Source of the DNA: Verrucomicrobiia bacterium
Lineage (GTDB): Bacteria > Verrucomicrobiota > Verrucomicrobiia > Limisphaerales > UBA1319
Assembly: GCA_963664225.1 (NCBI GenBank)
Contig: OY760937.1
Coordinates: 4,896,001-4,960,000, forward strand
Reading direction: 5' to 3'
DNA: 64,000 nucleotides
In this document: one piece after another, positions 1 through 42,342 of the stretch
How positions within the stretch are numbered: the first letter of the stretch is position 1
Layout of the letters: each line of letters begins with the position of its first letter
Translations under genes and position numbers: made by a program
Notes under the pieces: generated by a model
What the model saw: the letters and a program-made list of their open reading frames with translations, nothing else
Databases searched by the model: none
What the model was told of the DNA's origin: nothing

Positions 1-20
1 CATTCCACAGAGTTAATCAA

Positions 21-35979: not shown

Positions 35980-36276
35980 TTACTCGATCTCGGGTTTGGG
36001 CGGATTTTCTTCCGACGTTTTGATCATCCCTTCAAGCGTCGTTTTGAAATCCTGCAACCCTGTTGCGGGAACAATAATGGCATCCCGACGCCCGTTGACA
36101 TCCTCAGTGATGCGCAGGAACCGTCCGCGCGGGTTTTCCTTCAGGGTGAATACAAAGGTCTTTCGTTCGATTTGAACCTTTTCCGTCTTCAGCGTCTCTT
36201 CGGCCACAGCGGGCTTTGGCCCCGGTGTGGAGAACGGACGATTCCCATACGGCGATGGACGTTCATTCGAAATCAT
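35980..36276 (-). CDS. Single-repeat PUR-alpha-like (PurA family) ssDNA/RNA-binding protein
   Basis: KTF.F.LKEN.RGRFLRITE...RRDAIIVP. Confidence 0.8.
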   Translation of the reverse strand: MISNERPSPYGNRPFSTPGPKPAVAEETLKTEKVQIERKTFVFTLKENPRGRFLRITEDVNGRRDAIIVPATGLQDFKTTLEGMIKTSEENPPKPEIE

Positions 36277-36354
36277 ATTTTGCCACTCAGTTAACCATAT
36301 TCCCTTACCTCCTACACTTGTTCGGCACGCCTGCCGGTTTGTCAAATTTCTATT

Positions 36355-36912: not shown

Positions 36913-37024
36913 GCCGTTACTTTAGAAAAAATCACAAACAATGCCAAGCGCATATTTGGTGAGGGCCGCATGATAAAACTCACCGGGGGAAACCCACAAG
37001 CCTCGAATAAACGCGGACCCTCGT

Positions 37025-37054
37025 GGTAGGGCGTGCAGTCCTCTGCGCGCCGCC
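37025..37054 (+). repeat. REP family B palindrome
   Basis: GGTAGGGCGTGCAGTCCTCTGCGCGCCGCC; copies at 24765, 38585 and 38786. Confidence 0.8.
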
Positions 37055-37145
37055 TTGGATCTTTCCACACAACCGTCCTTCCGCGCATTCTGCGGACAAA
37101 CCTTTTCCCCATCCTGTCAATGATCTCCGAAGCATTTCCCATTCA

Positions 37146-37336
37146 GCGCCAGATCCTCCGCCATCGCACAAAATTCCCGAGCCAAAACACTATTTTCTTG
37201 CCTTTTAAGCAATACCGGGTTAATCTCTGCAAAAGGCCACCGGTAATCCGGTTTGTTTTCGCTGTCTGAGTTTGAGATGATAAATACTGGGGGGGCGGCA
37301 CATGATGAGCGCAAAAGTTACCATTCAACGTTGGGT
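37146..37336 (+). promoter_or_regulatory. Array leader copy 1: sigma70-like promoter plus attI-like core
   Basis: TTGCCT-17-TAATCT (37198-37226); ends AAAAGTTACCATTCAAC-GTTGGGT (GTTRRRY); homologous to 39224-39424. Confidence 0.6.
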
Positions 37337-37422
37337 TGCATCTGTTGGATTCCGCATGTGCGTTTGTTTCCCGTATTCTTCCGGCACGCTGCTTTTGTCG
37401 CATCGGGATGGGTATGGCAAAA

Positions 37423-37492
37423 TTGGCCCTGTCCGTTCCGCTGTCGCGGTTCACATCGCAAGTCCGCGGTCGTTCAGATTTCTGCATTAGTC
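37423..37492 (+). repeat. Degenerate attC-like site 1 (left end lost)
   Basis: TTGGCCCTGTCCGTTCCGCTGTCGCGGTTCAC...CAG...ATTAGTC. Confidence 0.6.
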
Positions 37493-37545
37493 GCCGCCAC
37501 ATATCCTTTTCAACCACAAACAAACAACCACAAACAAAGAAACAT

Positions 37546-37881
37546 ATGAGTGGATATTACGAACTCAAAACAACTGCGACCGGCAAGCACATGTTCAACC
37601 TCAAGGCCGGAAACCACGAAGTCATACTGACCAGCGAAATCTACGAGTCCAAAGAGGCCGCCCTGAATGGCATCGCTTCCGTCCGAACCAACGGTCCCCA
37701 CGAAGCTTCATATGAGAAGAAGGTGTCCGTCAAGGGCGAGCCCTACTTCGCCCTAAAGGCCGCCAATGGCCAGACCATTGGCAAGAGCGAGATGTACACT
37801 TCAGAGGCGGGGCGGGACAATGGCATTGCGTCCGTCAGGAATAACAGCCCCTCCGAAAAGGTGGTCGAAGTGAAGGCCTGA
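37546..37881 (+). CDS. YegP/DUF1508 family protein (cassette)
   Basis: Two repeats of F.LKA.N...I..SE.Y......NGIASVR.N. Confidence 0.9.
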   Translation: MSGYYELKTTATGKHMFNLKAGNHEVILTSEIYESKEAALNGIASVRTNGPHEASYEKKVSVKGEPYFALKAANGQTIGKSEMYTSEAGRDNGIASVRNNSPSEKVVEVKA

Positions 37882-37974
37882 CCCGTCGGCGGAACCAGCC
37901 GCCCTTGGCCCTGTCCGTTCGGTTGTCCCCGTTCACGTCTCGATTCGGCGTTGACTCAGCTTTTTACGTTAGTC
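37876..37974 (+). repeat. attC-like site 2
   Basis: GCCTGAC...GTTAGTC, 99 bp, overlapping the YegP stop codon. Confidence 0.75.
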
Positions 37975-38016
37975 CCCGGAACCAACCGGCGAGTGCGGTG
38001 TTCTTAATCACGTAAT

Positions 38017-38403
38017 ATGCTGAAAATTTTAACATTCGCCTTCGCGAGCATCCTGTTTCTGGCGGCATGCGACCGGGACCGCGGCACTGCCAGGCAAAGC
38101 GATTCCACCAATTTGGTGGACTGGGGTGTGGTCGAACTTTCGGTGAGCACTCCGAAGCGTTTGAGTCTTGGCGAAGGGAAGGACTGCACCATCACGGCAG
38201 TATCTGCCACGAATGGACATCTGGAAATCAGGATTGAAACAAAGGAAAAAATCGCAGGTGGGGATTTGCCGCCAGGCGTTCCCCTTGGAACCTCCTTGGA
38301 GAGCACCAAGACGATGACAATGACGGTCCCGTCTGGGGGCCAGCTTATGACGAGCATCGGGCTAAGGCCGGTTCGATTCACGCCCATACTTAAGGGGCCG
38401 TGA
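38017..38403 (+). CDS. Hypothetical lipoprotein (cassette)
   Basis: Lipobox FLAAC; starts about 40 bp after attC-like site 2. Confidence 0.7.
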   Translation: MLKILTFAFASILFLAACDRDRGTARQSDSTNLVDWGVVELSVSTPKRLSLGEGKDCTITAVSATNGHLEIRIETKEKIAGGDLPPGVPLGTSLESTKTMTMTVPSGGQLMTSIGLRPVRFTPILKGP

Positions 38404-38410
38404 TATCAGC

Positions 38411-38490
38411 GGCAACCAACAAACCTGCTGGTGGCGACGCCGCAATTCTGGTGCGGTTTCAAATGCGCCGCGATGCCTGAACGCTTGATC
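38411..38490 (+). repeat. Possible eroded attC-like site 3
   Basis: AACCAAC just after the stop, then GC-rich arms; right core not recognisable. Confidence 0.35.
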
Positions 38491-38553
38491 TGCCGTACCG
38501 CATAAACGATCCTGAAATCAGCGCACCGTCATGGGTGTTTTCCACACTCCTGA

Positions 38554-39200
38554 ATCCTCTCTTCGCGACCACCATGACATGCGTGGTAAGGCGTGCAGTC
38601 CTCTGCGCGCCGCCCGTCCAACCCACGCCCCCGATATTCAATTGGTAGGGCGAGGCTGCCGAGCCATCTCTGCACCCTTGCATCCCATCTGCCTCTACAG
38701 GGGCCAAATATTTCCCCCATCCTGTCCATCCTGATATCCATGTTAATAGCCCATATCCTCTCTTCGCGGCCATCATGACACTCGCGGTAGGGCGTGCAGT
38801 CCTCTGCGCGCCGCTCATCCAACCCACCCCCCCCAATGTTCAATTGGTAGCGCGAGGCTCCCGCCGAGCCCTCTCATTCGTCGTCCTTGTCGAAGGATTT
38901 CTCGGCATCCTCCTTGTGGTTGGGAATTTCAGGGGCAATTACTCCGGGCAGCATCCCGGCAGGGATGCCAGCGATTAGCCGGGGGTCGAGGTCGTCCGCG
39001 ACCGACACCCCCGGACACGCACCACAAACGAACACGATCCCGGCAGGGATCGCAGCCCCTTTTCAATGAGGGCGTGTGTACTCGCCTGCGGGTTATCCGG
39101 TCGTCCCCGTCCGGTGAATCGCATCAAAAGCTCCATAGGAGCGCCACGTTTATAGAAATCGACCAACCACGAAATTCAAGCTCCAGAGGAGCGGCATTCT
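38554..39200. repeat. Cluster of several REP-like/palindromic repeat families, including a tandem duplication with a 200-bp period
   Basis: Units start at 38554 and 38754 (each REP-B then REP-A); ATCCCGGCAGGGAT x2; AAGCTCCA.AGGAGCG x2. Confidence 0.8.
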
Positions 39201-39223
39201 TAAATCAATCCCCTTCGTGACCT

Positions 39224-39424
39224 GCGCCACATCATCCGAAATAACACAACAAATTTCCCCGCGCCCAACCACTATTATCTTGCTTTACAAGGCAATACAG
39301 GATTAATCTTACCGAAAGGGCACCGGCAACCCAATATGCTTCCGGTAGCTGAGTTTGAGACACTAAATACTGTTGGCCTGCATCACACGTCTTGTGAAAA
39401 CCCAAAAGCCATCCATTGTCGGAC
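39224..39424 (+). promoter_or_regulatory. Array leader copy 2
   Basis: GCGCCACATCATCCG, CACTATTATCTTGC, TTGCTT-18-TAATCT, CTGAGTTTGAGA...TAAATACTG and CAAAAG...CCATT all match copy 1. Confidence 0.6.
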
Positions 39425-39436
39425 TTCGCGACACCT

Positions 39437-39502
39437 GCACTTGCTGTTCCGCTGTCGCGGTTCGCGCCGCGAGTCGGCAGCGGCCCAGTTCTGGCGTTAG
39501 GC
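39437..39502 (+). repeat. attC-like site 4 (left end lost)
   Basis: GTTCCGCTGTCGCGGTTCGCGCCGCGAGTCGG...CAG...GTTAGGC. Confidence 0.65.
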
Positions 39503-39515
39503 CACTCGGCATTTT

Positions 39516-39764
39516 ATGACTATTCCGACTTTCAAGATTGGCGATAGGGTGCGAGTTGTCCGCGTTCCGCCGTCCGTCGAGCAGGAGATGCCATCCGAGA
39601 CAGTTGAACTTTTCAGGCGTTGCGTCGGTCAATCATTTCGCATAGATGGTTTTGGGGAGTATGGTCATCTGGAGCTGAATGTTTCCGATGATGGTTCGCA
39701 GGCACCGGATTATTCTAAGAACACCGTCTGGATTGAGCCTGAATTTGTGGAGTCAGTGTTATGA
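39516..39764 (+). CDS. Small hypothetical protein, SH3/KOW-like (cassette)
   Basis: FKIGDRVRVV...WIEPEFVE; bounded by attC-like sites. Confidence 0.7.
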   Translation: MTIPTFKIGDRVRVVRVPPSVEQEMPSETVELFRRCVGQSFRIDGFGEYGHLELNVSDDGSQAPDYSKNTVWIEPEFVESVL

Positions 39765-39774
39765 CTAAGCCGTG

Positions 39775-39872
39775 GCTTAACAATTCCCCGCCGCCAGCCG
39801 CCCTTGGCGCGGTCCGGTCCGTTGCGCGGTCCACGTCGCGAATCGACAGCGGCCCAGCTTTCTACGTTAGGC
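39775..39872 (+). repeat. attC-like site 5 (canonical ends)
   Basis: GCTTAAC (RYYYAAC)...GTTAGGC (GTTRRRY), 98 bp. Confidence 0.8.
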
Positions 39873-39893
39873 CACATTGACATCACACCATTT

Positions 39894-40055
39894 ATGAAAA
39901 CAATCAGCGCATCCATCATCGTTCTTGCCGCCGCCGTTATCATGGTTGGCGGTTCTCATTTCGCCGGAGACACTCAAACGTTTGTTTTGGCTGTCGGCTG
40001 CGGAGTTTGTGCCTTTGGTTTGTTGGGCTGGTTCGTCAGTTTGAAAGAAAAATAA
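39894..40055 (+). CDS. 53-aa two-TM membrane protein (cassette)
   Basis: MKTISASIIVLAAAVIMVGG...GLLGWFVSLKEK, between attC-like sites. Confidence 0.65.
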   Translation: MKTISASIIVLAAAVIMVGGSHFAGDTQTFVLAVGCGVCAFGLLGWFVSLKEK

Positions 40056-40097
40056 GCACGTTTTTTTGACCGGAGAATTTTAGATGAGACGCGAGCC

Positions 40098-40196
40098 GCC
40101 TGACCAGTCCCCGCCGCCAGCCGCCCTTGGACCTGTCCGTTCGGTTGCCCCGGTTCACGTCGCGAGCAGCCGGTGGCTCAGTCTTTTACGTGGGCC
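40098..40196 (+). repeat. attC-like site 6
   Basis: GCCTGAC...GGTTCACGTCGCGAG...GGTGGCTCAG...GTGGGCC. Confidence 0.7.
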
Positions 40197-40203
40197 TGAA
40201 AAG

Positions 40204-40860
40204 ATGCATTTCGTTATAGCAATCTTGTGCATGCTGCTGACCGCCGCCGCGGCTAACGCTGTGGATTCGGAAGAATCCGTTGGCGTCTGGTCATCCGAAC
40301 ACCAGCAGCTTCGCGCCCGCTTCATCGTCCGGCATGCATCCACGTTTCTGGACGGGAAGCCTGGCGGTCCTTACTCTGAGCTTCTCGTCTATCTTGAGTT
40401 GCAAAATACCAGCCCGGGTCTTGGCAGTATGCAACTTAAGCTCGATATTGACCCTACGACAAACATTGTATACCGGGTCGCTGATGAGCGAGGCTCCTTG
40501 ATCGAGCCGGAGCCTTTTGCATTCCGCAGCACCGTCGGCCCGGGTGTGTATAATCTGGTCCTCCCTCCTGATGGCAACCTCCGTTTCCCTGTTTCCATAA
40601 GCGGCGGCGGGGTCTTCGAAGACAAAGTGAAGCTCGATCTCAGCCCCAGCCAGGGCATTTGGTATTTTAAAAAGAGCGATGGGGGCGAATACAAACTGTC
40701 CGGCACGTTGCGGGTTCCGGCACTTCGCGAGCGGATTGGCCCGCTGTGGTGGCGAGGCGAGTTGGAGATCCCGCCGGTTAAACTCAGGTTCCCCGGTCCC
40801 AATACCCAAAACGCCGCTACAACGAAAGCGGCAGAACCGCGTCGGGGAACTGAACGTTAG
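40204..40860 (+). CDS. Secreted hypothetical protein (cassette)
   Basis: Signal peptide MHFVIAILCMLLTAAAANA; reads through a shortened attC and stops at its TAG. Confidence 0.7.
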   Translation: MHFVIAILCMLLTAAAANAVDSEESVGVWSSEHQQLRARFIVRHASTFLDGKPGGPYSELLVYLELQNTSPGLGSMQLKLDIDPTTNIVYRVADERGSLIEPEPFAFRSTVGPGVYNLVLPPDGNLRFPVSISGGGVFEDKVKLDLSPSQGIWYFKKSDGGEYKLSGTLRVPALRERIGPLWWRGELEIPPVKLRFPGPNTQNAATTKAAEPRRGTER

Positions 40861-40862
40861 TG
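40831..40862 (+). repeat. Internally deleted mini attC-like site 7
   Basis: GCAGAAC-CGCGTCGGGGAACTGAAC-GTTAGTG, 32 bp. Confidence 0.45.
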
Positions 40863-40870
40863 GCACCTTT

Positions 40871-41272
40871 ATGGCACGCGCGCTTTTATTGCTCACGTCG
40901 TTGCTGCTCCTTGGAGGCTGTGCCCACCTGAGCGATGCGGGCATTCGCAAGAATCTTCCCGGGGCCTGGCAAGTGGTTCTGCCATCCTTGGAGGAGCAGG
41001 GCATGAAGATTATTTACATGATCGCTCCAAACGGCGATTTTACACGCGAAACTCTGATGACCACCGCAGGCGTCCACGGTGTTGATATGACGGGCACATT
41101 TCAGGTTCAGGACGGCTATCTGATTGAAACGATCACCTACATGAGAGTCAGGAGAAATGCACCGCTCCCGCAAGTTTCACGCGCAAAAATCATTCACGCC
41201 GATGCCAGAAAGTTGGTGGTCGTCTTTGACGGGATGACTGAAAAGGCCACTTTCAGAAAGGACACGCGATGA
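40871..41272 (+). CDS. Hypothetical lipoprotein, lipocalin-like beta-barrel (cassette)
   Basis: Lipobox LLGGC; L.G.W motif; NG.F and G.F turns. Confidence 0.7.
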   Translation: MARALLLLTSLLLLGGCAHLSDAGIRKNLPGAWQVVLPSLEEQGMKIIYMIAPNGDFTRETLMTTAGVHGVDMTGTFQVQDGYLIETITYMRVRRNAPLPQVSRAKIIHADARKLVVVFDGMTEKATFRKDTR

Positions 41273-41273
41273 G

Positions 41274-41372
41274 GCCTGACCCGTCGCTGGAAACTACCGC
41301 CCTTGGCGCTTGCTTTTCCGCTGTCCCGGTTCACGTTGCATATCGGCGGCGGCTTAGCTGTCTGCGTTAGAC
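41274..41372 (+). repeat. attC-like site 8
   Basis: GCCTGAC...CCGCC...GGCGG...GTTAGAC, 99 bp. Confidence 0.75.
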
Positions 41373-41384
41373 CGATTGAACACG

Positions 41385-41852
41385 ATGCACTACAACATCA
41401 CATTAGCGAACTCCGAAGCGACTCCAACAGCAGTGGTGCGCGGTCGCGTGGAACCGAAGGATCTTTCCAAGTTCGTTCCCGCCGCGTGCGGCGAGGTCTG
41501 GTCGTTCATTCGTTCCGCTGGTCTCCCGCGCCCAGGCCGTCACGTCGCTTTGTATTTGGATGTGGGAGGGACAGTTGAGGTCGGAGCGGAGGTATCGGAG
41601 CCGTTTATCGGCAACGACCGGATTCATTGCTCTCAGTTGCCCGTTGGACGGGTGGTGACCGCCACCCACTTCGGCCCTTACCCGCGCCTTTCCGAGGCGC
41701 ATGCCGCCATTCGCCAGTGGTGCGCCGCGCACGGACATCGCCTTGCTGGCATTTCCTGGGAGGTCTATGGGCACTGGGAAGAGAGTTGGAACGCCGATCC
41801 ATCAAAAATACGCACAGATGTTTTCTACCTGCTGCAAAAACAAACGGCCTGA
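41385..41852 (+). CDS. GyrI-like small-molecule-binding domain protein (cassette)
   Basis: LP.G.V....H.GPY..L..AH.AI..W, WEVY, RTDVFY. Confidence 0.85.
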   Translation: MHYNITLANSEATPTAVVRGRVEPKDLSKFVPAACGEVWSFIRSAGLPRPGRHVALYLDVGGTVEVGAEVSEPFIGNDRIHCSQLPVGRVVTATHFGPYPRLSEAHAAIRQWCAAHGHRLAGISWEVYGHWEESWNADPSKIRTDVFYLLQKQTA

Positions 41853-41879
41853 CCAGTCGCACAGTGTTCAGCGTTAAGC
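41847..41879 (+). repeat. Internally deleted mini attC-like site 9
   Basis: GCCTGAC-CAGTCGCACAGTGTTCAGC-GTTAAGC, 33 bp. Confidence 0.5.
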
Positions 41880-41998: not shown

Positions 41999-42088
41999 TT
42001 TGAGATCTTTGAGATCTTTGAGATCTTTGAGATCTTTGAGATCTTTGAGATCTTTGAGATCTTTGAGATCTTTGAGATCTTTGAGATC
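41999..42088. repeat. Perfect tandem repeat (TTTGAGATC)x10
   Basis: Read directly from the sequence. Confidence 0.97.
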
Positions 42089-42342
42089 TTCCAAGTAACA
42101 GATCTATAACAATTTGCCTCACAGGAATTTATAAAACCATAAAAAATCACAAAAACGGCCACTTATTCAGGTAAGTTATTTCCACCAAACAGGCCCCCTT
42201 CCAAGGCCAGACTTGCTATGCGGTTAACTCTTTGTTCCCCCATCCGTGCCATCTGAGAAATCCGTGGTCAAAAATCCTGTTCATCCTGACCATCCATGTT
42301 TATTTCTCTTCGCCAGGGCTTCGCCCAATCTTGTTTCGTGTC

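Follow-up and report, generated by a model that had tools for sequence, protein, structure and literature searches.

Probable orphan promoter–attI modules heading cassette mini-arrays in an integrase-free Verrucomicrobiia chromosome

Two homologous blocks and where they end

A textbook integron has one promoter/attI site (attI, the integron attachment site), which lies beside the integrase gene, intI. The window analysed here, 64,000 nucleotides from a Verrucomicrobiia bacterium (contig OY760937.1, positions 4,896,001 to 4,960,000), contains two homologous non-coding blocks, each of which precedes a short row of gene cassettes. How did such blocks come to head cassettes with no integrase gene beside them? 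An initial annotation, made from the letters alone, proposed a promoter plus attI module that had spread without intI and captures cassettes in trans, with a protein-binding site or a structured 5′ RNA as alternatives. Coordinates below refer to the window, G000 denotes the analysed genome, and A–M are its 13 modules, of which A and B lie in the window. Our analysis indicates that the module is, very probably, an orphan cassette promoter (Pc) plus attI. The reading as a promoter–attI module without intI is well supported, and the conserved box corresponds to the attI core of one particular integrase (IntI) clade.

The blocks at 37146-37289 and 39224-39372 share 111 identities over 144 and 149 nt, compared with a mean of 83.5 and a maximum of 91 in 200 shuffles (BLAST E 1.3e-18). 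The homology first noted is thus confirmed, but not the proposed ends at 37336 and 39424, as likeness stops at 37289 and 39372. On the 3′ side of the box, A and B have 30 identities against a shuffle mean of 26.3, and 33 of 500 shuffles were equally high. Pairwise alignments among the five closest copies, A–E, all stop 0 to +6 nt past the G that closes the box, and three contigs of a peat metagenome cease matching at 37286-37289. Copies B, D and E read G|TTGG after the box, with a start codon mostly 15–35 nt further on. Because homology stops at the box and is followed by G|TTGG and a nearby start codon, the alignments place the insertion points at 37289/37290 in A and 39372/39373 in B, so that the crossover is G|TT directly after the box and not where it had first been put. 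The words GTTGGGT and GTCGGAC, at which the blocks had been thought to end, are chance words within the first cassettes: GTTRRRY with one mismatch is present in 67% of random 100-nt windows. Together with the end of homology at the box, this gives a module of about 145–170 bp instead of the 190 bp originally estimated. Module A, an intI-less Pc-attI platform, spans 37146..37289 (+) with a ragged 5′ end that possibly begins at 37117; module B spans 39205..39372 (+) and is homologous to copy C from -167. The window holds two mini-arrays in tandem, not a single array with an internal leader. An assembly artefact was considered and rejected, as contigs of three other runs, which may include the source sample's campaign, span the G-run of copy A with 0 differences.

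Both promoter hexamer pairs are present as initially annotated, TTGCCT-17-TAATCT in A (37198..37226, +) and TTGCTT-18-TAATCT in B (39280..39309, +), and the box CTGAGTTTGAGA-N3-TAAATACTG was again found in both blocks (37266-37289 and 39349-39372, +). A generic sigma-70 promoter scan called neither predicted Pc, the -10 element matching at only 3 of 6 positions. Upstream of tRNA genes, the shape TTG-nnn-16..18-TA-nnn-T, to which the Pc of A conforms, is present in 15 of 50 cases compared with 2.7% of random windows; among the 13 copies, 10 have it at -90 to -95. Six key promoter columns, chosen after inspection, have a conservation of 0.92 over the 13 copies compared with 0.69 around them. The attI core extends over 37266..37295 in A and 39349..39378 in B (both +). 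Its R box is intact in B (GTTGGCC), while A carries G|GG for G|TT; since the contigs of three other runs agree letter for letter on G|GGGGGC, the R box of A is really mutated. GTT is kept in B, D and E and lost in A and C. GTT-like words, possible direct-repeat sites of IntI, recur near -19 and -38 in many of the G000 copies and of the intI-linked sites of relatives described below. With a motif picked after inspection and a background of 9–10%, a GTT-like word was found at -16..-23 in 9 of 13 G000 and 9 of 11 intI-linked sites, and at -35..-44 in 9 of 13 and 6 of 11. Judged from its sequence, the module consists of a predicted promoter of the sigma-70 type, lying some 92 nt ahead of an attI whose G|TT crossover comes directly behind the box.

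The module is not confined to the window. An iterated profile found 13 copies in G000 (E 6e-31 to 1.2e-13; best match in the reversed genome E 0.89), and a second search recovered the same 13. They head 13 different first genes, joined at the same base, and the first 300 nt past the crossover are unrelated in all copy pairs except for a piece of attC, the cassette recombination site, common to A and B. An attC on the same strand lies within 1.5 kb of 6 of the 13 copies versus 0.4% of random positions, a lower bound because the two attC profiles used miss some sites. Among the 19 attC clusters of G000, all three with at least four attC matches are headed by this module family. In copies I, L and M the core is largely lost, and a Shine-Dalgarno-like stretch connects L to the gene that it heads.

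A second, unrelated family of promoter plus attI-like heads was also observed in G000 (15 matches at E<1e-3, with no cross-match to the 13-copy family). On G000:C1 it is located at ~222 kb, 338-340 kb, 846-848 kb, 1.68 Mb, 1.737-1.757 Mb, 1.958-1.962 Mb, 4.12 Mb, 4.88 Mb and 5.336 Mb, and one degenerate copy follows xerC at a distance of 240 nt. None of the relatives' intI loci examined yielded the integrase of this second family.

The module beside integrase genes in relatives

The G000 assembly is one contig, 96% complete, with 11 tyrosine recombinases. Its best score against the IntI model TIGR02249 is 82 bits, where the cut-off is 265, and the two proteins nearest to IntI are XerD-like and XerC-like, both without the IntI insertion. 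A tblastn search with the IntI of 19 relatives detected no remnant near any of the 13 copies; the best match, at 38%, was to a XerD-like protein. An atypical resident integrase, considered for the second-family-like match beside xerC, was rejected, as the protein encoded there resembles XerC and has no IntI insertion. Thus, the observation that no integrase gene lies upstream of either block holds for the whole assembled genome.

IntI proteins above the cut-off occur in 22 of 60 relatives. The box was first found divergent from a long IntI in G007:C7 (373 bits to TIGR02249). Exact-pattern scans, which are narrow in reach, gave four matches in genome contigs, one of them a chance match in a coding gene and three of the four from Verrucomicrobia/Verrucomicrobiota, and three in metagenome contigs, all representing the same locus as G006:C277 and none with intI in 2.5 kb. 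Searching 401 genomes of the order with the G007:C7 IntI (E<=1e-120) yielded 17 loci in 16 genomes; two had no upstream DNA, which left 15 scorable. In a blind test, 11 of the 15 had [AT]CTG|TT on the strand opposite to intI, 201–305 nt ahead of the start of the gene, compared with a background of 4.9% (P 4e-12, the kin genomes not being independent) and none of 15 downstream controls. At these 11 sites a TTG lies between -90 and -98, and the motif leads into a cassette-like start; a twelfth locus reads AATG|TTAGGCC. Conversely, with a profile built from 10 G000 copies alone, two long-IntI upstream regions were matched at E<=0.004, one more at 0.37, and no downstream region. In the same genus, the full module of G001:C39 stands next to a long intI with a frameshift, ~190 nt separating the gene from the crossover, and in G381:C55 a homologue of the module (E 4.9e-22, 73% over 159 nt to copy D) lies beside a 5′ intI fragment.

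Because the same end and the same promoter spacing sit beside long intI genes in relatives, the module is very probably the intI–attI spacer of one integron class, that of the long-N-terminus IntI of this Verrucomicrobiota order. Whether any copy abuts an intI gene, a check suggested at the outset, can be answered positively for relatives such as G007:C7 and G301:C30, though not for G000. The protein that binds the box is most likely IntI, so a protein-binding site is no rival to the attI reading.

Two further features of these integrases were observed. Members of the cognate IntI clade are extended at the N-terminus by ~113 aa, a stretch without a Pfam match (L024:1159-2433; L116-L130), and a literature search of limited coverage found nothing on the long IntI. 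A palindrome, CAAAC-N3-GTTTG, occurs near the intI start in 8 of 15 long-IntI loci, e.g. L096, L097, L116, L118 and L120. It is a candidate operator for intI and is lost or eroded in the lone copies of G000, where the palindrome is not enriched (7 sites vs 11 in the control).

Spread of the module and loading of the cassettes

When 400 other genomes were searched by pattern, 14 sites emerged, spread over 8 of them; of nine genomes in the same family, five were positive. Two sites stand beside an intact intI (G007:C7, G301:C30) and three beside remnants, namely G381:C55, G007:C3 (residues 1-52 fused to 423-443) and G007:C103 (21 codons). Six have no IntI match within 1.5 kb, and three were counted neither as lone nor as intI-linked: G009:C34, G138:C4 (73 nt upstream) and G004:C420, with 314 nt upstream and a weak IntI match on the cassette side. 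BLAST with one copy matched 3 of 60 relatives, one by chance, and an RNA-model search of 150 order genomes added G012 only. In G007 and G301, lone copies cluster with the platform of the integron resident in that genome (support 98/97 and 100/99). As lone copies cluster in this way and intI remnants persist, whole integrons appear to be duplicated and then to lose intI. Two observations were made by eye: at L060 (G009:C34:190552) an attC-like left arm is seemingly fused to an attI core inside an array, and L098 (G006:C24:101313) and L068 (G007:C103), differing lone platforms from two genera, carry the same first cassette.

It could be supposed that every copy arose by decay in cis alone, each having been a complete integron that loaded itself and later lost intI, with no trans step and no movement of a lone module. 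The series from intact (G007:C7, G301:C30) through frameshifted (G001:C39), 5′ fragment (G381:C55) and deletion (G007:C3) to stub (G007:C103) fits this, and intI inactivation is described as common in the Xanthomonas account as available (10.1101/2025.06.18.660453). However, none of the 13 G000 copies has an intI remnant, and in the available text of Cury et al. (PMC4889954) pseudogenes lie near only 15 of 279 clusters of attC sites lacking integrases (CALINs). Moreover, the 5′ ends of B, C, D and probably A all lie at -167 to -172 and abut different repeats resembling repetitive extragenic palindromes (REP), yet the cassettes of these copies differ. We regard decay in cis alone as unlikely, though as the most serious of the alternatives.

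The REPs first reported upstream of both blocks are indeed multicopy REP-like repeats. Those abutting the 5′ end of A occupy 37016..37121 (37016-37053 has 45 BLAST matches in 29 1-kb bins genome-wide, and 37101-37121 matches several loci), and a cluster at 38554..39200, with 17-44 BLAST matches per piece, separates the two sub-arrays. Five of the 13 copies have a REP-like repeat in the 600 nt that precede them, compared with a 1% background, and G000 has nine Y1 transposase (Y1_Tnp) genes. The common start would be explained most simply by onward copying of a single intI-less module and later loading of the copies with different cassettes, for which IntI acting in trans is needed. The claim that the module spread without intI is supported in part, for A–D by their shared 5′ end at REP-like repeats, and is weakened by the several lone copies of relatives that keep stubs or broken pieces of intI. 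Capture in trans by a resident enzyme is impossible now, as the genome has no IntI; trans loading in the past is something we would lean towards, with some reserve. The 1.5 kb preceding the flanking DUF4149 gene contained neither a module nor an attC in any of nine family genomes (0/9), and the window locus is therefore a lineage-specific insertion.

Could B, D and E still be acquiring cassettes at present, by means of a visiting IntI or some other recombinase? They retain GTT, and in both G007 and G301 an intact intI coexists with lone copies that carry other cassettes. In addition, a peat metagenome contig of 1603 nt, ~92% identical, joins 40424-41275 to 37945-38417. It thus puts cassettes of sub-array B before one of sub-array A and shows cassette reordering among close relatives, without dating it; this rests on one contig, possibly from an intI-bearing organism. 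The DUF1508 cassette has low cover in the peat run. Against present activity, GTT is gone from A and C, the attC sites are eroded, and three other runs are identical across the array pieces they cover. Any visiting enzyme must also belong to this clade because IntI enzymes are, according to the available part of PMC2095811, specific for their cognate attI. Current uptake is accordingly improbable, and the system looks inert in this genome. The window attC sites are decayed members of their family: only 17-19 of 25 consensus pairs are kept in the four full window sites and 15-21 of 25 in 17 of 18 scored G000 copies, and bottom-strand folding showed no recombinogenic hairpin beyond the level of shuffles. 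As the promoter columns are better kept than the recombination signals, the present role of the modules is most likely that of promoters that drive frozen mini-arrays.

A structured 5′ leader RNA regulating the downstream genes is very unlikely. An imperfect inverted repeat (37238..37263, +; -51 to -26) can form a 9-pair stem with 85% of cells paired, and the region has a conservation of 0.84 over the 13 copies, including those without a core. Nevertheless, a gathering-threshold Rfam search of the window returned one tRNA and nothing else, the RNAalifold covariation term is unfavourable (+0.42), two both-side changes compare with 1.6 in shuffles (253 of 500 as high), and the stem is missing from several intI-linked platforms. 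The right half of the inverted repeat is a GTTTG repeat at -38, a possible accessory IntI site. Least tenable is a host promoter family, a promoter with a repressor palindrome beside which cassettes landed at chance attG sites: although L and I head ordinary-looking genes without GTT and the available text on attG insertion near promoters demonstrates it experimentally (10.1101/2022.09.11.507474), the end motif and -35 spacing recurring beside intI at 11 of 15 loci largely refute it, the palindrome alone is not enriched elsewhere in G000 (37 matches vs 98 in the reversed control), and the nine family genomes lack the module at the DUF4149 locus.

In the explanation that we favour, and consider likely as a whole, the platform would have multiplied partly as whole integrons that later lost intI and partly, in A–D, as an already intI-less module abutting REP-like repeats, moved by repeat-mediated rearrangement. 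A once-resident or visiting IntI would have loaded each copy independently, and at least some of this loading would, somewhat more probably than otherwise, have occurred in trans. After the loss of IntI, the recombination signals would have eroded while the promoter was kept, leaving small fixed cassette operons. A broader version, a distributed integron, we put forward tentatively and with slightly less than even confidence. Here the module would multiply without an integrase, selected as a ready promoter, each copy being loaded independently by cognate IntI in trans; G000 would hold two unrelated networks of 13 and ~15 copies; and many CALINs and single cassettes elsewhere would be loaded orphan platforms, not debris or chance insertions.

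Several points weigh against the favoured explanation. Whether copies always precede attC arrays, as the initial annotation had asked, is true only in part, since 7 of the 13 have no attC match nearby (the profiles miss some sites) and two or three (I, L, M) have lost the core, so that some copies may be plain promoters. Folding of the window attC does not exceed that of shuffles (nine stretches, z -1.9 to +1.3), and the exact motif is missing at 4 of 15 long-IntI loci. The promoter and direct-repeat positions were picked after alignment, so their P values are optimistic. The tree of 110-nt copies does not resolve, and the G000 copies do not form one clade; independent deletions may have ended at the same place, a matter on which the copy tree cannot decide. 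Finally, with the assembly 96% complete, an intI may reside on an unassembled replicon.

The arrays of the window and their place among integrons

Both mini-arrays run on the + strand. The first cassette of A (37290..37492) is a gene start fused to the right two-thirds of an attC (attC part 37423-37492); the left-truncated attC is matched at 37423-37490 over profile positions 30-97. It is followed by a cassette with a DUF1508 (YegP-like) gene at 37546-37881 (Pfam PF07411, E 4e-42) and an attC at 37876-37972 (37546..37972 in all), and by a cassette at 38017..38500 with a 128-aa lipoprotein-like gene (38017-38403), which has no Pfam match. The degenerate attC-like stretch behind that gene was seen by eye only, and neither attC profile matches it. 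The first cassette of B (39373..39502) consists of ~60 nt fused to the right two-thirds of an attC (attC part 39437-39502), matched at 39437-39499 over profile positions 33-96. The left-truncated attC described after each block is thus borne out, and both first cassettes look internally deleted. Five further cassettes after B (39516..41879; from open reading frames, attC profile and Pfam) have genes at 39516-39764, 39894-40055, 40204-40860, 40871-41272 and 41385-41852 (GyrI-like), attC sites at 39775-39870, 40098-40191 and 41274-41370, and, by eye, short deleted attC-like remnants near 40835-40866 and 41846-41879. A motif-plus-folding attC detector missed all known sites and was discarded; the three sites of its second version served only as profile seeds.

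Some details of these sites and their surroundings were observed in passing. Three attC (window 37423 and 39437; G000:C1 358346) are cut at nearly the same point, profile positions 28-33, with the whole left arm gone, and in two of the three cases the site is the first attC to follow a platform. Most window attC (37466-41373) have a 7-nt spacer ahead of R′, equal to the AAT-GTT distance in the attI core; the textbook value is shorter. A nine-base microsatellite, GAGATCTTT, is present in ~9 copies at 42006-42090, just past the array. A gene for a PurA-family ssDNA/RNA-binding protein (35983-36345, -; Pfam PF04845, E 2e-10), ~800 nt upstream of module A, is probably unrelated.

The arrays are CALINs by definition and laid out like integron platforms, though they are not complete integrons. 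The window has six attC matches, by our own profile and not by IntegronFinder's model, where the CALIN definition in the available text of Cury 2016 (PMC4889954) asks for at least two, and there is no intI nearby and none beside attI. Small arrays, an IntI-free genome and the lack of an intI pseudogene also agree with that text; the difference is that the arrays here keep a cognate attI and a predicted promoter, in many copies. The same text gives four routes to CALINs, which the available part of PMC8618304 repeats. It regards a split-off CALIN as cut off from Pc, and attI as unknown for most integrons and unsearched outside classes 1-3. In the available portion of PMC9024848, attI is typically single, and poorly known and unsearched outside class 1. 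Archaeal attI have been reported beside intI (10.1101/2022.02.06.479319, as far as that text is available). Compared with the intI-Pint-Pc-attI platform of the available parts of PMC3146285 and PMC9024848, the module has a predicted promoter, putative GTT-like repeats, the G|TT crossover and the first cassette, and an identical layout beside long IntI in relatives. It differs in having no intI, 13 copies against "typically one", a dead R box in A and C, and a Pc in the spacer instead of inside intI. The GTT-like words near -19 and -38 recall DR1/DR2 of attI1 as given in the accessible part of PMC3146285.

The nearest published mechanisms are attG insertion and the decay of intI in Xanthomonas. 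In the Xanthomonas account cited above, intI loss freezes arrays and extra CALINs lie elsewhere, but the platform is at one locus (ilvD) and its available text notes no attI copies heading other CALINs. In that of Loot et al. (10.1101/2022.09.11.507474), likewise available in part, cassettes inserted outside the integron (single attC sites lacking integrases, SALINs) owe their expression to a promoter close by. Whereas attG sites are unrelated genomic sequences, the target here is a repeated attI homologue with its own predicted promoter. No description of multi-copy orphan attI platforms was found in a literature search of limited coverage, with few subscription papers and no supplements. All component parts are already known.

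The origin of CALINs is an open question, to which this order now contributes a defined attI for a whole IntI clade, heading integrase-less arrays in many copies. It suggests that CALIN cassettes could be expressed from a Pc of their own and could be reloaded, and with the attI defined, recombination between cognate IntI, orphan attI and attC becomes directly testable.

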